Part shown: in pieces, positions 18,896 through 35,781 of the stretch
Layout of the letters: each line of letters opens with the position of its first letter
Position numbering within the stretch: the first letter of the stretch is position 1
Assembly (NCBI GenBank): GCA_041393215.1
Contig: JAWKKP010000018.1
Location: forward strand, 20,675 to 84,674
DNA from: Draconibacterium sp.
GTDB lineage: Bacteria > Bacteroidota > Bacteroidia > Bacteroidales > Prolixibacteraceae
Direction of reading: 5' to 3'
Length of the DNA: 64,000 nt
Made by a program: the position numbers and the translations under genes
The notes under the pieces: model-generated
Seen by the model: the letters and a program-made list of their open reading frames with translations, nothing else
The model's database searches: none
Told to the model about the DNA's origin: nothing

Positions 18896-21205
18896 ATGAA
18901 AAATTATATAAAGCATCACGAATGGAAAATTATTGAAGAGGGTTTTAATCCTAAAAATAATCGCATTTCTGAAAGTATCTTCAGTATTGGCAACGGTAAA
19001 ATGGGACAGCGTGCCAATTTCGAAGAAAAATATTCGGGCGATTCGCTTCAGGGATCGTATGTTGCAGGAATTTACTATCCCGACAAAACCCGGGTTGGAT
19101 GGTGGAAAAATGGCTATCCGGAGTACTTTGCCAAAATAATCAATTCGACAAACTGGATTGGAATTAACATTTTAGTTAATGGTGAAGAACTTGATTTGGC
19201 GAGCGCAAAAGTTCTATCATTTCAACGGATTCTTGACATGCAACATGGATTATTGGTTCGTAATTTTGTTGCTGAATTAACGAATGGAAACCGAATTGAA
19301 GTTCAGTCCAAGCGCTTTGTAAGTATTGACGAAACAACACTTGGAGCAATAAGATATTCTGTTAAAGCTTTAAATTTTTCAGGCGAAATTTCGGTAACAC
19401 CATATCTTGATGGCGATGTTTACAACGAAGATTCCAATTATGATGAAAAATTTTGGGTAGAGATTTCAAAAGAAGTAAATCAGGATGAAGGTTTTCTGAC
19501 GGTAGAAACCCTGAAAACAAAATTTCAGGTTTGCACTGGAATGGGTTTTCAGATTTTTAAAAATAATGAGCCGGAAAAATCACCCATAAAAAGCTCATTC
19601 AGAGATAAACGAATAGAATCATCTCAGTCAGTTATTGTTAAGAAAGGCGACGAAATAAATATCGAAAAACTCACGGTCACAGTTTCTTCTCTCGATTTTG
19701 AAAATGAAGAACTAGTTGCAAAGGCAAAAAGCAGTATCAAATCAGCCAAGGCCACCGGATTCGATCAATTATATGAAAATCATAAAAATAAATGGTTAAA
19801 TAAATGGGAAACCAGCGATATTAAAATCGAAGGAGATGTAGCCGCCCAGCAAGGCATCCGTTATAATATTTTTCAGTTAAACCAAACTTACTCAGGTGAA
19901 GATGAACGGCTCAACATTGGCCCAAAAGGATTTACCGGGGAAAAGTATGGAGGTGTTACTTATTGGGATACAGAAGCTTATTGTGTTCCGTTTTATCTTA
20001 GCACCACTCCAATAGATGTTTCAAGAAAGCTTTTACTCTACCGGCATCGCCACTTGGGCAGGGCAATTGAAAACGCCGAGAAACTTGGTTTTAACAGTAA
20101 TGCGGCATTATACCCCATGGTTACCATAAATGGAGAAGAGTGCCATAACGAGTGGGAAATTACTTTTGAAGAAATTCACCGTAATGGCGCAATAGCCTAT
20201 GCAATTTATAACTATGTAAACTATACAGGCGACAAAGAATATCTGGCGCCTTACGGTTTTGAGGTTTTGCTCGGAATCAGCAGGTTTTGGAGCCAAAGGG
20301 TCAACTGGTCCAATGAAAAACAAAAGTATGTCATACTTGGGGTTACGGGCCCCAATGAATACGAGAATAATGTAAATAATAACTTCCATACCAATTACAT
20401 GGCGGTGTGGACGTTAAAATATACACTCGAGGTAATCGATTTTCTACAGAAAGAGTATCCATTTTTATATGGCGAATTGGTAAATAAGTGGAAATTCAAC
20501 GAATTGAAGGAGACCAGTCGTTGGAAGGACATTATGGCGAATATGTATTTTCCTTTTGACAAGGCAAATAATGTATTTCTTCAGCAGGATGGTTTTAACG
20601 ACAAAGAACTAATTCCGGTTTCTGAACTGGCAGAAAGTAACAAGCCAATTAATCAAAAATGGTCATGGGACAGAATTTTGCGTTCATGTTACATCAAACA
20701 GGCTGATACATTACAAAGTATGTTTTGGTTTGAAAACAATTTTACGGCAGAAGAATTAAAACGCCATTTTGATTATTATGAACCACTTACGGTTCATGAA
20801 TCCTCGCTTTCTCCCTGTGTTCATTCGATTTTAGCGGCAAAAATCGGTTATGAGGAAAAATCGTATGAAATGTATTTACGCACTTCCCGGCTCGATTTGG
20901 ACGATTACAACAACGATACTGAGGATGGTTTGCACATTACCAGTATGGGTGGCACCTGGATGGCTTTTGTAATGGCATTTGGAGGAATGCGTGCCCGTGA
21001 GGGGAAATTGATTTTCAATCCTTTTATCCCGAATAACTGGAAATCTTATGCATTCCGAATCGATTTTCGCGAAGCACATTTGAGCCTTGAAATGAAGAAC
21101 GAGGGTTTGACAATCGTCAACTATTCGGCTAAAGATGTTTCTTTGGTTGTTTGGGGAAAGGAAATTGAAATACATGGAAATAGCACAAATAAAATTTCGA
21201 AATAA
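18896..21205 (+). CDS. GH65 maltose phosphorylase
   Basis: GPKGFTGEKYGGVTYWDTE, TGPNEYE, IKQAD and HESSLS GH65 motifs. Confidence 0.93.
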   Translation: MKNYIKHHEWKIIEEGFNPKNNRISESIFSIGNGKMGQRANFEEKYSGDSLQGSYVAGIYYPDKTRVGWWKNGYPEYFAKIINSTNWIGINILVNGEELDLASAKVLSFQRILDMQHGLLVRNFVAELTNGNRIEVQSKRFVSIDETTLGAIRYSVKALNFSGEISVTPYLDGDVYNEDSNYDEKFWVEISKEVNQDEGFLTVETLKTKFQVCTGMGFQIFKNNEPEKSPIKSSFRDKRIESSQSVIVKKGDEINIEKLTVTVSSLDFENEELVAKAKSSIKSAKATGFDQLYENHKNKWLNKWETSDIKIEGDVAAQQGIRYNIFQLNQTYSGEDERLNIGPKGFTGEKYGGVTYWDTEAYCVPFYLSTTPIDVSRKLLLYRHRHLGRAIENAEKLGFNSNAALYPMVTINGEECHNEWEITFEEIHRNGAIAYAIYNYVNYTGDKEYLAPYGFEVLLGISRFWSQRVNWSNEKQKYVILGVTGPNEYENNVNNNFHTNYMAVWTLKYTLEVIDFLQKEYPFLYGELVNKWKFNELKETSRWKDIMANMYFPFDKANNVFLQQDGFNDKELIPVSELAESNKPINQKWSWDRILRSCYIKQADTLQSMFWFENNFTAEELKRHFDYYEPLTVHESSLSPCVHSILAAKIGYEEKSYEMYLRTSRLDLDDYNNDTEDGLHITSMGGTWMAFVMAFGGMRAREGKLIFNPFIPNNWKSYAFRIDFREAHLSLEMKNEGLTIVNYSAKDVSLVVWGKEIEIHGNSTNKISK

Positions 21206-31294: not shown

Positions 31295-31324
31295 TTTGGG
31301 ATTTTTTTCTTTTAATTACCTTTG
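31295..31324 (+). promoter_or_regulatory. Sigma70 promoter of the hemerythrin-luxR pair
   Basis: TTTG at 31295-31298 and TACCTTTG at 31317-31324. The -7 element overlaps the GTG used by the ORF track, so the true start is more likely the ATG at 31348. Confidence 0.65.
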
Positions 31325-31347
31325 TGCCTTTAAAACAAAGGCTATTA

Positions 31348-32103
31348 ATGAATAATTACTTTCCGTTTACTGAAAAAACACGATTAGCAGACCTTATTCA
31401 TCAGGATTATAAACTTATACCCGTAATCGGTCGGTTTGGAATCAAATTTGGATTTGGAAATAAAACCGTTTCCGAAGTTTGCCGAGACTATAACATTAAC
31501 AAATGGTTTTTCCTCGAAATAATCAATTCATTTCATAATAGTAATTATTTTCCTACCGAAGAACTTCAACACTTTTCGGCACAAACAATGGTAAGTTATC
31601 TTTCAAACACGCACGCCTGGTATTTAAATGTTAAGGTGCCGGAGATTGAGGATTCCATTAATGAGATGAAACGTTTGGCTCCCAATGAGGATGTAAAGAA
31701 CATAAAACTAATCAGCGACTTTTTTCAGGAATATAAAAACGAATTGGTAATTCATTTGGATGAAGAAGACTCTAAAGTTTTTCCTTATATTATCTCGCTG
31801 GAGAAATCGCTGGAGATGGGGGTTTTTGATAAGGAACTAATTCGGAAAATCCAGGATGAATCGATTGAAGAGTACGAACGAAATCATGATAACCTTGAGG
31901 TTAAACTGGCCGATTTAAAAAATCTGATTATCAAATATCTTCCTCCCGTTTCGTCTTACGATTCATGTCAAAGATTACTCATCGAGCTGTTCCGTTTGGA
32001 AGCCGATATTGAAAATCACACCCGGATTGAGGAGAAAGTGTTGGTGCCGAAAGTAAAATTGCTGGAACAGGAAATAATTCAAATTAGTGGAGCAGGAAAA
32101 TAA
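31348..32103 (+). CDS. RIC/YtfE-like hemerythrin (di-iron) domain protein
   Basis: ScdA_N-like N-terminus; candidate iron ligands HAWY, HLDEED, HD and HTRIEE. Confidence 0.8.
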   Translation: MNNYFPFTEKTRLADLIHQDYKLIPVIGRFGIKFGFGNKTVSEVCRDYNINKWFFLEIINSFHNSNYFPTEELQHFSAQTMVSYLSNTHAWYLNVKVPEIEDSINEMKRLAPNEDVKNIKLISDFFQEYKNELVIHLDEEDSKVFPYIISLEKSLEMGVFDKELIRKIQDESIEEYERNHDNLEVKLADLKNLIIKYLPPVSSYDSCQRLLIELFRLEADIENHTRIEEKVLVPKVKLLEQEIIQISGAGK

Positions 32104-32695
32104 AAAGATCCAGGTAGCGGTTATTGCACAGCAGTTTTTAACCCGGTTGGGAATAAAAACAATTTTAAGTGTAATTGGGATTGAGCCGGAAGTTCTGGAA
32201 TCAAATAATTTTTATGATTTGAAAAATATACTGGCACGCCAGAATTTCGATTTTATGATTTTGAGCGAAGACATTTTGCCATTACCGAAAAATATAAGCC
32301 TGAACGAATTAACCGGGCTAAGCAAAAATACCCGGTTAATGGTTATTAGCGATAAAAAAATTGAAAATTGCCCATGTTCCAATTTCGTTTTGTATTCCGA
32401 TAATCAGAAAGAAGTACTGGAGAAGTTTCAGGAATTCTTTTTTGAACCTGAAAATAACTCATCGGTTGAAGGCAATGAAAATGTTTTAAGTGAACGGGAA
32501 ATTGATATTTTAAGGGAAGTTGCCTCCGGGTTTTCAAACAAAAAGATAGCAGATAAACTCCATATTAGCATAAACACTGTAATTACCCATCGAAAAAATA
32601 TTACTGAAAAACTGGGTATAAAAACCATTGCCGGACTAACTGTTTATGCATTAATCAACAATATTATCGACGCTGAAAATTTAAAGAATTTTTAA
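32087..32695 (+). CDS. LuxR-family regulator with a degenerate receiver-like domain
   Basis: LSEREIDILREVASGFSNKKIADKLHISINTVITHRKNITEKLGIK helix-turn-helix; GTG start overlapping the hemerythrin gene by 17 nt. Confidence 0.9.
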   Translation: MEQENKKIQVAVIAQQFLTRLGIKTILSVIGIEPEVLESNNFYDLKNILARQNFDFMILSEDILPLPKNISLNELTGLSKNTRLMVISDKKIENCPCSNFVLYSDNQKEVLEKFQEFFFEPENNSSVEGNENVLSEREIDILREVASGFSNKKIADKLHISINTVITHRKNITEKLGIKTIAGLTVYALINNIIDAENLKNF

Positions 32696-32883
32696 GACCT
32701 TTTGTTCTTAATTCGTCATGTTTAGGTAGAGCTTATTCTTTATCTATTCTTTTAGAACTCTAAAATCATAATTTTTAATGATCGGAAGGGATACATGATT
32801 GATTAATTTTGAAAGCAATAAGAGGTAATACGTTGGATTAATTTTTTAAAATCACTTTTAACAACACAGCATTATAATAAAAT

Positions 32884-32891
32884 TAACTTTG
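32884..32891 (+). promoter_or_regulatory. -7 element TAACTTTG for the uORF-TBDT transcript
   Basis: Exact TAnnTTTG ending 16 nt before the ATG at 32908. Confidence 0.65.
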
Positions 32892-32907
32892 CTGTCGATT
32901 GAAAATT

Positions 32908-33264
32908 ATGATATTTATACGTCGGCATATTAAGTTTCTGTTTGTTTTTGTTTTGCCAGTTTATTTATTTATTGTTCAGCAAACCATTCAGAACAAACAT
33001 ACGCATTTCTATCCCAATGGAATTGTGGTAATTCATTCGCACCCGGTTAACAAGGAAGCAGGTCAGCCAATGAATAGCCAGGGGCATTCAAAAACCGAAA
33101 TATTATTGTATGCTTCATTGCATTTTGATTTGTATAAAACTTCCGATTTCACATTCATTGAATTTGTTCAAAACGGGGAATCGAGAAACTTCTATATTGC
33201 CGACGAACGATTAGAATATACTGAATTATATCTTGAAACAATTCCACGCGGTCCACCGGCATAA
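32908..33264 (+). CDS. His-rich upstream ORF (118 aa) with C-terminal RGPP arrest-peptide motif (DUF2946/CruR-like architecture)
   Basis: Hydrophobic residues 8-23; His at 31, 33, 43, 45, 60 and 72; ends IPRGPPA*; 71 nt upstream of the TBDT gene. Confidence 0.8.
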   Translation: MIFIRRHIKFLFVFVLPVYLFIVQQTIQNKHTHFYPNGIVVIHSHPVNKEAGQPMNSQGHSKTEILLYASLHFDLYKTSDFTFIEFVQNGESRNFYIADERLEYTELYLETIPRGPPA

Positions 33265-33335
33265 TGTTTTTCACCTTTTAAAACTTTCTGCCTAAACTAC
33301 CAAAGAGATTTTATTTACCAAATCATTTTTTTACA

Positions 33336-35720
33336 ATGAAAAAGTTAATAGCGCTTTTTGTGCTATCAAGTATATGTGCGATAATTTCGGCGCAACCAGC
33401 ACCTCCACTTTCGGATGACAATTCAAAGAAAAAATTAAACACAGATGCCATGTTATTTGGTGATGTAAAATCGGAAGGAGTGCACATTCCGTTTGCAACA
33501 ATAGTAATAAAAGGAACAACCATTGGAACTGCTGCTGATGCAACCGGGCATTTTAAAATAACCAATCTCCCGGTAGGTAAACAAACGGTAGTTGTTTCCG
33601 CCATTGGTTATAAAACTGCAGAAAAAGAATTTAATCTTGAAACCAAAAAAAGTATAACATTTTTATTTGAGCTGGAACCTGATAACATTGGAATTGACCA
33701 GGTTGTGGTTTCGGCCGATCGCAATGTAAAAAGCAGACGCGAATCACCAACCATTGTTAATAGTATTAATCCATCGTTATTATCAAGAACTCAAAATGTA
33801 ACACTCAGCGAAGGTTTAAATTTTTCGCCAGGACTCAGAATGGAAAATAATTGTCAGAATTGCGGGTTTTCGCAAATCAGAATGAATGGTTTGGAAGGGC
33901 CGTATTCGCAGATATTAATTAATTCGCGCCCGGTTTTTAGCGGATTGGCGGGAGTTTACGGTCTGGAACTTATTCCGGCAAATATGATTGAACGCGTGGA
34001 GGTAATTCGTGGCGGCGGTTCGGCCATGTATGGAAGCAATGCAATTGCCGGAACCATCAATTTAATTACGAAAGATCCGGTTATCAACAACTTTTCAGTA
34101 GCCGGAAGTTTGGGTTCAGTAAAACCATCAGAAAAAGAAAATAGCAGTGATTACAGCCTGAATTTAAACGGATCGTTTGTAAGCGACGACTATAAAACCG
34201 GAATGAGTTTGTTTGGTTTTACCCGTAAAAGAAATCCATACGATGCTAACAGTGATGGTTTTTCAGAGCTTGCATTGATAGAAAACACAACGCTCGGAAC
34301 GCGAATTTATCAACGGATTTCTCATCGTGGTAAGTTAACTATTGACTATTTTAATATTGGCGAATTCCGTAGGGGTGGAAATAAATTTGAACTTCCTTTA
34401 CATGAAGCTGATATCACTGAAAGCGTAAAACATAAAATAAATTCGGGTGCTGCAACATTCGATTTATTGATGCGCGAATCCGATAAATTCTCTGTTTTCT
34501 TTTCAGGGCAAAGTGTCGATCGTGATTCATATTATGGCGCACATCAGGATTTGTCGGCCTACGGAAACACAAAAGATTTTACTTTTTCCTCGGGTGCGCT
34601 TTATATTCGGCAGGTGGAAAAATTTTTGGTTTCCCCTGCAACAATTACTTCCGGGCTTGAATGGAACGGAAGTAATTTGGAAGATACAAAATTGGGTTAC
34701 TACAATCCGGTTGATGACGTTCACTACGGAAATACATTGGTGGCCAATCAGGGAGTTTCAACTCAAGCTGGTTTTTTACAATCCGAATGGAAAATGAAAT
34801 CGTTGATTTTTACTGCCGGGTTTCGGTTCGACCATTACGAAGTTTCCGATAAAACTCATGAAAGTGACGACATTTCAGGGAATGTTTGGAGTCCGAGGCT
34901 AAGTCTTCTTTATAATATTACAGAACATTTTCAATTCAGATCTGGATTGGCAAGAGGTTTCAGGGCTCCTCAAATTTTTGATGAGGATTTGCATATTGAA
35001 ACTTCGGGCTCCAGAAAGGTAATTCACGAAAATTCTCCCGATTTAAAACAGGAAACTTCAACCAGTTTTACTTCTTCGCTCGATTTTACTGAAGATCACG
35101 GTCGCTGGCAATACCAGATTCTTATAGAAGGTTTTTATACGAAGCTGATGAATCCATTTTCAAACACTTACGGGCAACCCGATGAAAACGGAACCGTAAT
35201 TTACACCCGCGTTAATGCGGAAGACGGGGCTACAGTGAAAGGAGTAAGTTTAGAGTTTAACTTGTCGCCATCAGCGCGGTTCCAGTTGCAATCGGGTCTT
35301 ACCATCCAAAGAAGTGAGTTTGAGAAGCCACAGGAATTTAACGAAACACAATTTTTTCGTTCGCCGGATCGATATGGATACATCAGTTTAAACTATAGTC
35401 CAACCCTGCCTCTTAATATTGCTTTTACCGGAAATTATACCGGGCCGATGTTCGTTCCTTATTTTGGCCCTTTGGCAGAAAACATGGAAATTGGCCAGTT
35501 AAATAAAACCGGAAGTTTCTTTGATGCAGGCATAAAATTGAGCTATGATTTTGAAATTGCTGATGTGATTACCATGCAGGTGAATGGTGGAATTAAGAAT
35601 ATTTTCAATAGTTACCAGGATGATTTTGATACCGGTATTGATCGCGATCCGGCATATATTTACGGGCCACTTACCCCGCGAACTGTTTATTTTGGCATAA
35701 AATTCGGAAATCTGCTGTAA
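33336..35720 (+). CDS. TonB-dependent receptor (non-SusC, probable metal/cofactor importer) with a CQNC motif in the plug
   Basis: Carboxypeptidase-regulatory-like N-domain; RMENNCQNCGFSQIRMNGLEG; IERVEVIRGGGSAMYGSNAIAG; beta-barrel C-terminus. Confidence 0.92.
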   Translation: MKKLIALFVLSSICAIISAQPAPPLSDDNSKKKLNTDAMLFGDVKSEGVHIPFATIVIKGTTIGTAADATGHFKITNLPVGKQTVVVSAIGYKTAEKEFNLETKKSITFLFELEPDNIGIDQVVVSADRNVKSRRESPTIVNSINPSLLSRTQNVTLSEGLNFSPGLRMENNCQNCGFSQIRMNGLEGPYSQILINSRPVFSGLAGVYGLELIPANMIERVEVIRGGGSAMYGSNAIAGTINLITKDPVINNFSVAGSLGSVKPSEKENSSDYSLNLNGSFVSDDYKTGMSLFGFTRKRNPYDANSDGFSELALIENTTLGTRIYQRISHRGKLTIDYFNIGEFRRGGNKFELPLHEADITESVKHKINSGAATFDLLMRESDKFSVFFSGQSVDRDSYYGAHQDLSAYGNTKDFTFSSGALYIRQVEKFLVSPATITSGLEWNGSNLEDTKLGYYNPVDDVHYGNTLVANQGVSTQAGFLQSEWKMKSLIFTAGFRFDHYEVSDKTHESDDISGNVWSPRLSLLYNITEHFQFRSGLARGFRAPQIFDEDLHIETSGSRKVIHENSPDLKQETSTSFTSSLDFTEDHGRWQYQILIEGFYTKLMNPFSNTYGQPDENGTVIYTRVNAEDGATVKGVSLEFNLSPSARFQLQSGLTIQRSEFEKPQEFNETQFFRSPDRYGYISLNYSPTLPLNIAFTGNYTGPMFVPYFGPLAENMEIGQLNKTGSFFDAGIKLSYDFEIADVITMQVNGGIKNIFNSYQDDFDTGIDRDPAYIYGPLTPRTVYFGIKFGNLL

Positions 35721-35742
35721 TCCGTTTTCAGGGATAGATATT

Positions 35743-35781
35743 AAGGGCTACTTGTTGATACTAAGTGGCCTTTATTTATTT
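35743..35781 (+). terminator. Terminator after the TBDT gene
   Basis: AGGGCTACTT/AAGTGGCCTT stem plus T-rich tail. Confidence 0.75.

Follow-up and report, generated by a model that had tools for sequence, protein, structure and literature searches.

Metal uptake is normally governed by repressors that bind DNA (Fur, Zur and MntR, for example), and CruR and CutF have shown that a nascent peptide, too, can detect copper in the periplasm and signal its presence to the ribosome that is making it. Here we describe a candidate sensor of the latter kind, with histidine ligands, in a 64,000-nucleotide (nt) stretch of Draconibacterium sp. (Bacteroidota; Prolixibacteraceae): positions 20,675 to 84,674 of the forward strand of contig JAWKKP010000018.1, assembly GCA_041393215.1. 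This whole stretch is called the window, and coordinates count from its first letter. The element in question is an upstream open reading frame (uORF) of 118 amino acids (aa) that ends in Arg-Gly-Pro-Pro-Ala and precedes the gene for a TonB-dependent transporter (TBDT). We think it rather likely, by analogy with known systems, that this uORF is a cis-acting, metal-sensing RAPP/RGPP arrest leader of the TBDT gene that follows it, working by CruR-like relief of a ribosome stall and Rho termination.

CruR (Bp2923, of the DUF2946 family, PF11162) of Bordetella pertussis leads cruR-crtA(bfrG)-bp2921 (Roy et al. 2022, PMC9426467). The 45 aa between its CxxC and RAPP motifs are kept within 1-2 residues, and addition of 5 residues abolishes copper control (PMC9426467). 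In vitro, CruR arrests the ribosome at RAPP, the P and A sites then being occupied by the two Pro codons (PMC12992588); the stall blocks Rho-dependent termination until copper relieves it (PMC12992588; PMC9426467). The window leader resembles CruR as a small exported or anchored peptide with a ligand motif at a fixed distance from a C-terminal R-A/G-P-P, with a TBDT directly downstream, and with a tract richer in C than in G that starts within the 3' part of the uORF and continues into the spacer, as at the Rho site of CruR. There is, however, no detectable homology. The window family has three HxH pairs and no cysteine where CruR has CxxC, and its ligand-to-motif distance (the "ruler") is 54-55 aa instead of 45; it occurs in Bacteroidota, a phylum without reported CruR homologues, and it precedes a CQNC-plug transporter rather than CrtA.

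CutF of Rhodobacter capsulatus, another DUF2946 protein (PMC9973294; bioRxiv 10.1101/2025.02.05.636593), is likewise a nascent exported metal sensor whose C-terminal proline-rich stall motif controls the next gene, and its design is able to switch on a detoxification gene, as three pump-associated members of the present family would need. It belongs to another fold family with other ligands, and it works by copper-induced stalling and unmasking of a ribosome-binding site, whereas no such RNA structure is predicted at the window locus. ApdA/ApdP and SecM (RAPP/RAGP) share with our leader a C-terminal core motif and an N-terminal localisation signal, their arrest being released by pulling force; but these monitor protein export and precede secDF or secA, while the window family precedes metal-transport genes.

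RAPP and RGPP give robust, EF-P-resistant arrest (PMC12992588), and both motifs are over-represented in small exported proteins encoded ahead of TonB receptors, an enrichment reported across Gram-negatives (Fujiwara et al., EMBO J 2025, PMC12992588). The leader class, an RAPP/RGPP uORF before a TonB receptor, was thus already catalogued in 2025, and the window family is a variant within it; the orthologues WP_045026041.1 (Draconibacterium sediminis) and HCE57455.1, together with more distant members, are rows in the RGPP/RAPP source tables of that paper. The catalogue gives counts only; the His-type family goes undescribed there, as do its ruler, its two architectures and its CQNC and CusA/CzcA links. 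New here, then, are a large His-type family without a database model, a fixed ruler, two architectures, co-evolution with the CQNC plug, and occasional wiring to metal exporters.

The leader and its family

The leader begins with MIFIRRHIK, followed by FLFVFVLPVYLFIV. An in-frame TTG at 32899 would extend it to 121 aa; the alignment of homologues starts at the ATG at 32908. From the positive-inside rule we infer that the hydrophobic segment is an uncleaved signal anchor with N-in/C-out topology; L16 and P17 are invariant among close homologues. The histidines are arranged as H31-T-H33, nine further residues, H43-S-H45-P46, and then H60 and H73, and there is no cysteine in the 118 aa. The C-terminus is I-P-R114-G-P-P117-A-stop, with the codons cgc ggt cca ccg gca taa at 33247-33264. 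With fewer than 300 aa, an N-terminal membrane segment, R-(A/G)-P-P near the C-terminus and a co-oriented position upstream of a transporter gene, the uORF belongs to the catalogued class.

In 64 diverse members of the family, with a mean column identity of 30%, the sole invariant columns are H31, H33, G38, H43, H45, R114, P116 and P117; P46, H58 and H60 are conserved in at least 90%, and the consensus is three HxH pairs. Among 148 representatives the terminal motif is RAPP in 85 and RGPP in 44 (R[AG]PP in 129/148); 18 more have RSPP, RDPP, RPPP, HAPP, KAPP or KSPP, and one is truncated ([RKH]xPP in 147/148). The motif lies close to the stop throughout these representatives, at 1-18 residues (median 4). 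At 57 loci its four codons take 50 distinct 12-nt versions, with all synonymous codons in use, and because of this synonymous variation selection on the motif acts on the peptide and not on the RNA.

The ruler, measured from the Arg back to the last His of the third HxH, spans 54-55 aa in 115 of the 148 representatives, 52 aa in another 23 and 51-60 aa overall. The linker of about 50 aa between the His cluster and RxPP is unconserved in sequence, fixed in length, and modelled as coil.

Sixteen close relatives were returned by a word-indexed search, all from Prolixibacteraceae (e.g. Draconibacterium, Maribellus). A profile search over 1.84 billion representatives extended the family to 816 clusters (E <= 1e-3; counted at 50% identity), nearly all of them 105-135 aa long and matching end to end. 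Pfam and NCBIfam contain no model for the leader or its relatives, the only match being a sub-threshold one to the HypB His-stretch (E = 0.0023, 18 bits, cut-off 35). Membership in DUF2946/PF11162 was considered and rejected: the window protein has no match at E <= 0.1, two of the 64 members have one at best E = 0.02, and there is none genome-wide. A locus search with an alignment of close homologues gave only Prolixibacteraceae. Among 401 sampled Bacteroidota genomes, 20 have a leader match, over several classes, and nine more loci came from another 401 genomes, sampled within the class, some genomes having two or three copies.

The leader is single-copy in its own genome. Among ATG-initiated ORFs of at least 60 aa in the six frames of this 5.6-Mb genome, RGPP has a single occurrence, which is the window leader. 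Counts in the long ORFs of the genome are 0 for RGPP (5.5 expected), 0 for KGPP (10.8 expected) and 2 for AGPP (9.4 expected). Since xGPP and xAPP motifs are all rare in this genome, the rarity of RGPP is by itself not Arg-specific, and conservation is the strong argument. An RGPP-specific depletion was accordingly rejected, the numbers being too small and KGPP and AGPP equally rare.

AlphaFold2 (AF2), run with the 64-sequence alignment, gave a model with a mean predicted local distance difference test score (pLDDT) of 76.7. It consists of a membrane helix at residues 2-29 (pLDDT ~91), a beta-hairpin at 30-34/40-44 bearing four His (pLDDT of the His domain 75-82), a short helix at 62-70 and coil for the remainder. 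The His cluster is predicted to form a periplasmic metal-binding hairpin. A Foldseek comparison of the model with the PDB gave no match at E <= 0.001; its soluble part is mainly coil and too small. The family comes in two architectures: 87 of 161 members have a second hydrophobic segment, which ends 21-29 residues before the Arg, and the window subfamily does not.

Genes downstream of the leaders

In Prolixibacteraceae a TBDT gene comes next in all 41 orthologue loci with sufficient downstream sequence. In other families, 20 of 23 intact His-type uORFs are followed, 41-341 nt away, by a TBDT homologous to that of the window (E 1e-57 to 1e-276). These transporters share a feature of the plug: the window TBDT has CQNC at residues 173-176 (nt 33852-33863), within NNCQNCGF at 171-178, and a CxxC motif, mostly CQNC, is present in the plug of 24/25 TBDTs behind His-type uORFs (17/18 plus 7/7 of the class scan). 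TBDTs behind a second, unrelated uORF family have a plug without CxxC.

The remaining three of the 23 uORFs head a CusB-like adaptor and a heavy-metal RND pump of the CusA/CzcA family, which scores 919 bits with TIGR00914 (cut-off 701) and has the DFGx3DGA signature. We take this signature, one of the HME-RND signatures, to point to divalent cations. Because three of 23 leaders precede such pumps, the sensor is tied to metal homeostasis independently of the TBDT. One further pump-associated leader is found in published tables (PMC12992588).

These findings bear out the sequence-level part of the original prediction, which was made from the sequence alone. The anatomy that it gave for the ORF (118 aa, a hydrophobic N-segment, HxH-x9-HxHP, two more His, and P-RGPP-A-stop) is all present. 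It had proposed to check whether homologues keep both HxH..HxHP and R(G/A)PP and lie upstream of TonB receptors, and this holds for the motif (129/148, with His columns invariant in 64 members) and for the position (41/41 close and 20/23 distant loci). Its term for the leader, a "His-ligand analogue" of CruR, also fits: the family is non-DUF2946, has His ligands, and keeps a constant His-to-RxPP distance as CruR does for its own ligand.

Several individual loci deserve mention. (i) The three pump-heading leaders (L037, L092, L096) have a second transmembrane segment. (ii) One genome (G682) carries three His-type leaders, two ahead of TBDTs and one ahead of a pump. (iii) In two loci from another class of the phylum the leader is degenerate: at L028 the motif is PRASPQ and the frame continues into the transporter gene, and at L035 the leader frame is broken. 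Both still precede a homologous CQNC-plug TBDT and are natural loss-of-motif variants. (iv) The window's own genome has a second, unrelated RAPP leader of 104 aa (contig C6:290386-290700, minus strand), with an N-terminal hydrophobic segment, EHKHEHFVC...C..C His/Cys motifs, an LLRAPPSCQI-stop end and no Pfam match. It sits 270 nt upstream of another CarbopepD_reg-type TBDT (746 aa) and resembles the Cys/His leaders ahead of CQNC-less TBDTs in L039-L043.

A CQNC-type TonB receptor has been described in Stenotrophomonas maltophilia (V8P27_002357), where it occurs with a periplasmic thioredoxin-fold protein, is regulated by MntR and is a proposed manganese importer (PMC13217887). The likeness to the window transporter lies in the motif, CQNC in the plug centre, and a thioredoxin-fold gene follows the TBDT in three related loci; the control differs, MntR there and a leader peptide here. 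No thioredoxin-fold gene occurs in the window, where the gene after the TBDT encodes an unrelated 299-aa protein. In the three related loci (L026 4767-5231, L038 4882-5355, L094 4812-5285) the gene for a secreted thioredoxin-fold protein (W-C-x-Y-C-K) starts on the TBDT stop or overlaps it. A Pfam scan of two of these proteins, those of L026 and L094, gave matches to Thioredoxin_2, Thioredoxin_7 and Thioredox_DsbH. A protein search with the plug region gave, among the 120 matches listed, only close Bacteroidota relatives and no Proteobacterial CQNC receptor. The nearest solved structures to the window TBDT are CirA and FepA, at E 1e-21 or weaker, with no hint of the substrate.

Spacer and RNA output

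The spacer between the leader and the transporter gene contains no intrinsic-terminator-like hairpin, and RNAfold finds weak A-U-rich stems only (z = -1.86). Its C-G skew of +0.56 falls in the top 4.5% of the 606 co-directional spacers of 40-100 nt in the genome (mean +0.02), and the tract with C over G peaks at 33230-33327 (C 27%, G 13%). The same bias is seen in 24/26 short-spacer (29-100 nt) orthologues, with a mean skew of +0.42 and, in many, runs of C4-5; the spacer sequences themselves have diverged although the excess of C over G is kept. A Rho gene is present in the genome. The original prediction had noted a C-rich 71-nt spacer (14 C, 4 G) with no hairpin; composition and a hairpin scan agree, and the C-richness stands out within the genome and is kept in close orthologues.

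Transcripts of the leader occur in four metatranscriptomes from wastewater. In two independent runs the assembled RNA contigs, 32831-33303 and 32870-33308, both stop ~40 nt past the uORF stop, in the C-rich spacer, and these ends fit, weakly, a partial termination in the spacer.

Elsewhere in the family the spacer is built differently. Several lineages with spacers of 134-330 nt carry hairpins, some of them terminator-like, and at one distant locus a clean intrinsic terminator lies 8 nt past the leader stop. Regulated termination may be the common theme, implemented differently by lineage. In the Draconibacterium orientale group (L056, L059, L062, L063, L072) a conserved insert of ~165 nt with two hairpins takes the place of the short C-rich spacer, and the second hairpin is terminator-like (GGCGATGGTTTATCGC then TTTTC). 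The spacer of this group may represent the same switch built with an intrinsic terminator.

Proposed mechanism and alternatives

By analogy with the CruR toeprint, the stalled ribosome would have Pro116 in its P site and the codon for Pro117 in its A site. At that point ~80 residues would be beyond the exit tunnel, with the helix inserted N-in/C-out and residues 31-45, the His hairpin, on the periplasmic side. Lying 54-56 residues from the stall, the third HxH would be just leaving the translocon, this distance being about the length of the tunnel plus the translocon. The stalled ribosome would cover the start of the C-rich, G-poor tract (33190-33367), keeping Rho off, and the transporter gene would be transcribed and translated. 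With plentiful cognate divalent metal in the periplasm, the His cluster would close around the metal, and its folding would pull on the nascent chain and release the stall; translation would then terminate at the TAA, the C-rich RNA would be bared, and Rho would terminate in the spacer, turning the importer off. The overall logic would be negative feedback on uptake. Pump-associated members would need the inverted logic, as with CutF versus CruR.

The candidate metals are Zn, Co and Ni, which the original prediction had already suggested, together with Mn and Cu(II). As judged from the residues, the all-His ligands and a conserved Glu64 would suit Zn, Ni, Co, Cu(II) or Mn, and the metal probably differs from the Cu(I) of CruR. 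A bolder version, which we put forward tentatively as somewhat short of an even bet, is that the 54-55-residue ruler acts as a nascent-chain force ruler reporting a periplasmic divalent metal (Mn or Zn most likely). On that version, the family would be the first His-based arrest family outside copper and DUF2946, turning importers off and CusA/CzcA exporters on at high metal, and it would be the missing regulator of the recently proposed CQNC transporter family and give a lead to its substrate.

A number of observations weigh against the proposed stall-relief and Rho mechanism. At 12 distant loci the skew is mixed (-0.26 to +0.80), and it is strong only in the close Prolixibacteraceae short-spacer orthologues, so that the output step may differ between lineages. 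The RNA evidence consists of assembled contigs of very low depth (2-7), and in a third run one contig reads through the spacer (33232-33514). Demonstrations of RAPP/RGPP arrest come from systems other than Bacteroidota ribosomes. The window leader lacks the second transmembrane segment found in about half of the family, and since only about half have it, the force-generating step may differ between subtypes; it also has Gln at position 58, which is His in at least 90% of members. Finally, deletion of the export signal of CruR left regulation unchanged (PMC9426467), and the periplasmic-sensing picture is therefore insecure even for CruR.

Three other explanations were weighed. The uORF could be an arrest leader whose stall acts on translation initiation of the transporter, in the style of SecM-secA or CutF-cutO, by melting RNA structure that hides the start region, and not on Rho termination. 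Unmasking of this sort is the mechanism shown for CutF, another DUF2946 leader (bioRxiv 10.1101/2025.02.05.636593), and it would accommodate the RNA contig that passes through the spacer. The window fold, however, places no stable structure over the transporter start. Across the window and 25 short-spacer orthologues the predicted unpaired probability of the start region (-18 to +12) is 0.45, against 0.46 with the stall footprint opened, and it rises by >0.1 at only one of these 26 loci. Bacteroidota, moreover, mostly do without Shine-Dalgarno-based initiation, and we regard this explanation as unlikely. Distinctly improbable, in our judgement, is an arrest leader that senses something other than a metal, such as Sec/YidC insertion capacity, or envelope redox or pH with the His as titratable groups. 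His does protonate near neutral pH, and the second transmembrane segment of about half of the family ends 21-29 residues before the Arg, where membrane insertion pulls stalled chains in force-profile work; most characterised RAPP-type arrest peptides do monitor Sec/YidC (PMC10987492). Yet the genes downstream are never sec or yidC but TBDTs, or CusA/CzcA pumps in 3/23 loci, the six conserved His, paired as three HxH on a beta-hairpin, make a typical metal site, and the window subfamily is without the second segment.

The uORF might instead encode an ordinary small membrane protein that functions in its mature form, such as a partner or chaperone that binds metal in the periplasm for the transporter, with RxPP as a structural or interaction motif and no stall. 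Pairs of a transporter gene and a small accessory protein gene are common, the His domain combines good conservation with a moderately confident model (pLDDT 75-82), and a released peptide may well have a second role. It is harder to square such a protein with a final stretch of ~50 residues that is unconserved except for RxPP, modelled as coil, and conserved in length and not in sequence, with a motif that is always 1-18 residues from the stop, or with the same leader heading two unrelated kinds of metal operon, import and efflux. RAPP and RGPP also stall ribosomes in all bacterial systems tested (PMC12992588). We find a protein without a stall very improbable. A metal-sensing arrest leader with Rho termination is the reading that we prefer.

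Locus features and neighbouring genes

The features of the locus are collected in Table 1. Many orthologues have similar TAnnTTTG boxes 15-25 nt ahead of the start codon. Because the RNA contigs start at 32831-32870, the upstream box or read-through may also serve leader transcription.

Table 1. Features of the leader-transporter locus in window coordinates
Feature	Position	Strand	Basis or detail
Second TAnnTTTG box, TAATTTTG	32804-32811	+	Read from sequence
Candidate Bacteroidota -7 promoter box, TAACTTTG (TAnnTTTG), 16 nt before the ATG	32885..32892	+	Read from sequence
Leader ORF (uORF), His-type RGPP arrest-peptide candidate	ATG 32908..TAA 33264	+	118 aa
Codons of the N-terminal hydrophobic segment (~residues 9-27)	32932..32988	+	RRHIK + FLFVFVLPVYLFIV; AF2 helix
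Codons of the His cluster, residues 31-60: H31xH33, x9, H43xH45-P46, (Q58)xH60	32998..33087	+	Conservation; AF2 beta-hairpin
Tract with C over G, from the 3' part of the uORF through the spacer, candidate Rho-utilisation region	33190..33367	+	78-nt sliding window
RGPP codons, cgc ggt cca ccg	33247..33258	+	Predicted stall site; R114/P116/P117 invariance
Intergenic spacer, 71 nt (A22 C14 G4 T31), no intrinsic terminator	33265..33335	+	Hairpin scan, composition
TBDT, 794 aa: CarbopepD_reg_2 + Plug + beta-barrel	33336..35720	+	Pfam
Terminator-like hairpin + T-run, closing the two-gene unit	35742..35774	+	Hairpin scan

Directly upstream of the leader lie overlapping genes for a hemerythrin/RIC-like protein and a LuxR/GerE-type regulator (31324-32695). 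The orthologous loci of four relatives are without these two genes and have DUF3859 or a 98-aa gene in that place. From this comparison the pair looks like a lineage-specific insertion, outside the leader-transporter unit. A four-gene module of hemerythrin, LuxR, uORF and TBDT was considered and rejected, as only the uORF and TBDT are kept in the orthologous loci.

Implications

The family is missing from Pfam and NCBIfam, and for that reason its genes are annotated as hypothetical or left uncalled. The CQNC plug, together with the CusA/CzcA links, offers a route to the substrate of a widespread transporter family, and the strict ruler of 54-55 residues makes the idea of force transduction directly testable. 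If our reading is true, nascent-peptide metal sensing operates in Bacteroidota, where translation initiation and Rho are unlike those of E. coli. A second, unrelated and very large family with His ligands would then mean that the principle evolved more than once, and that it extends beyond copper and beyond Proteobacteria.

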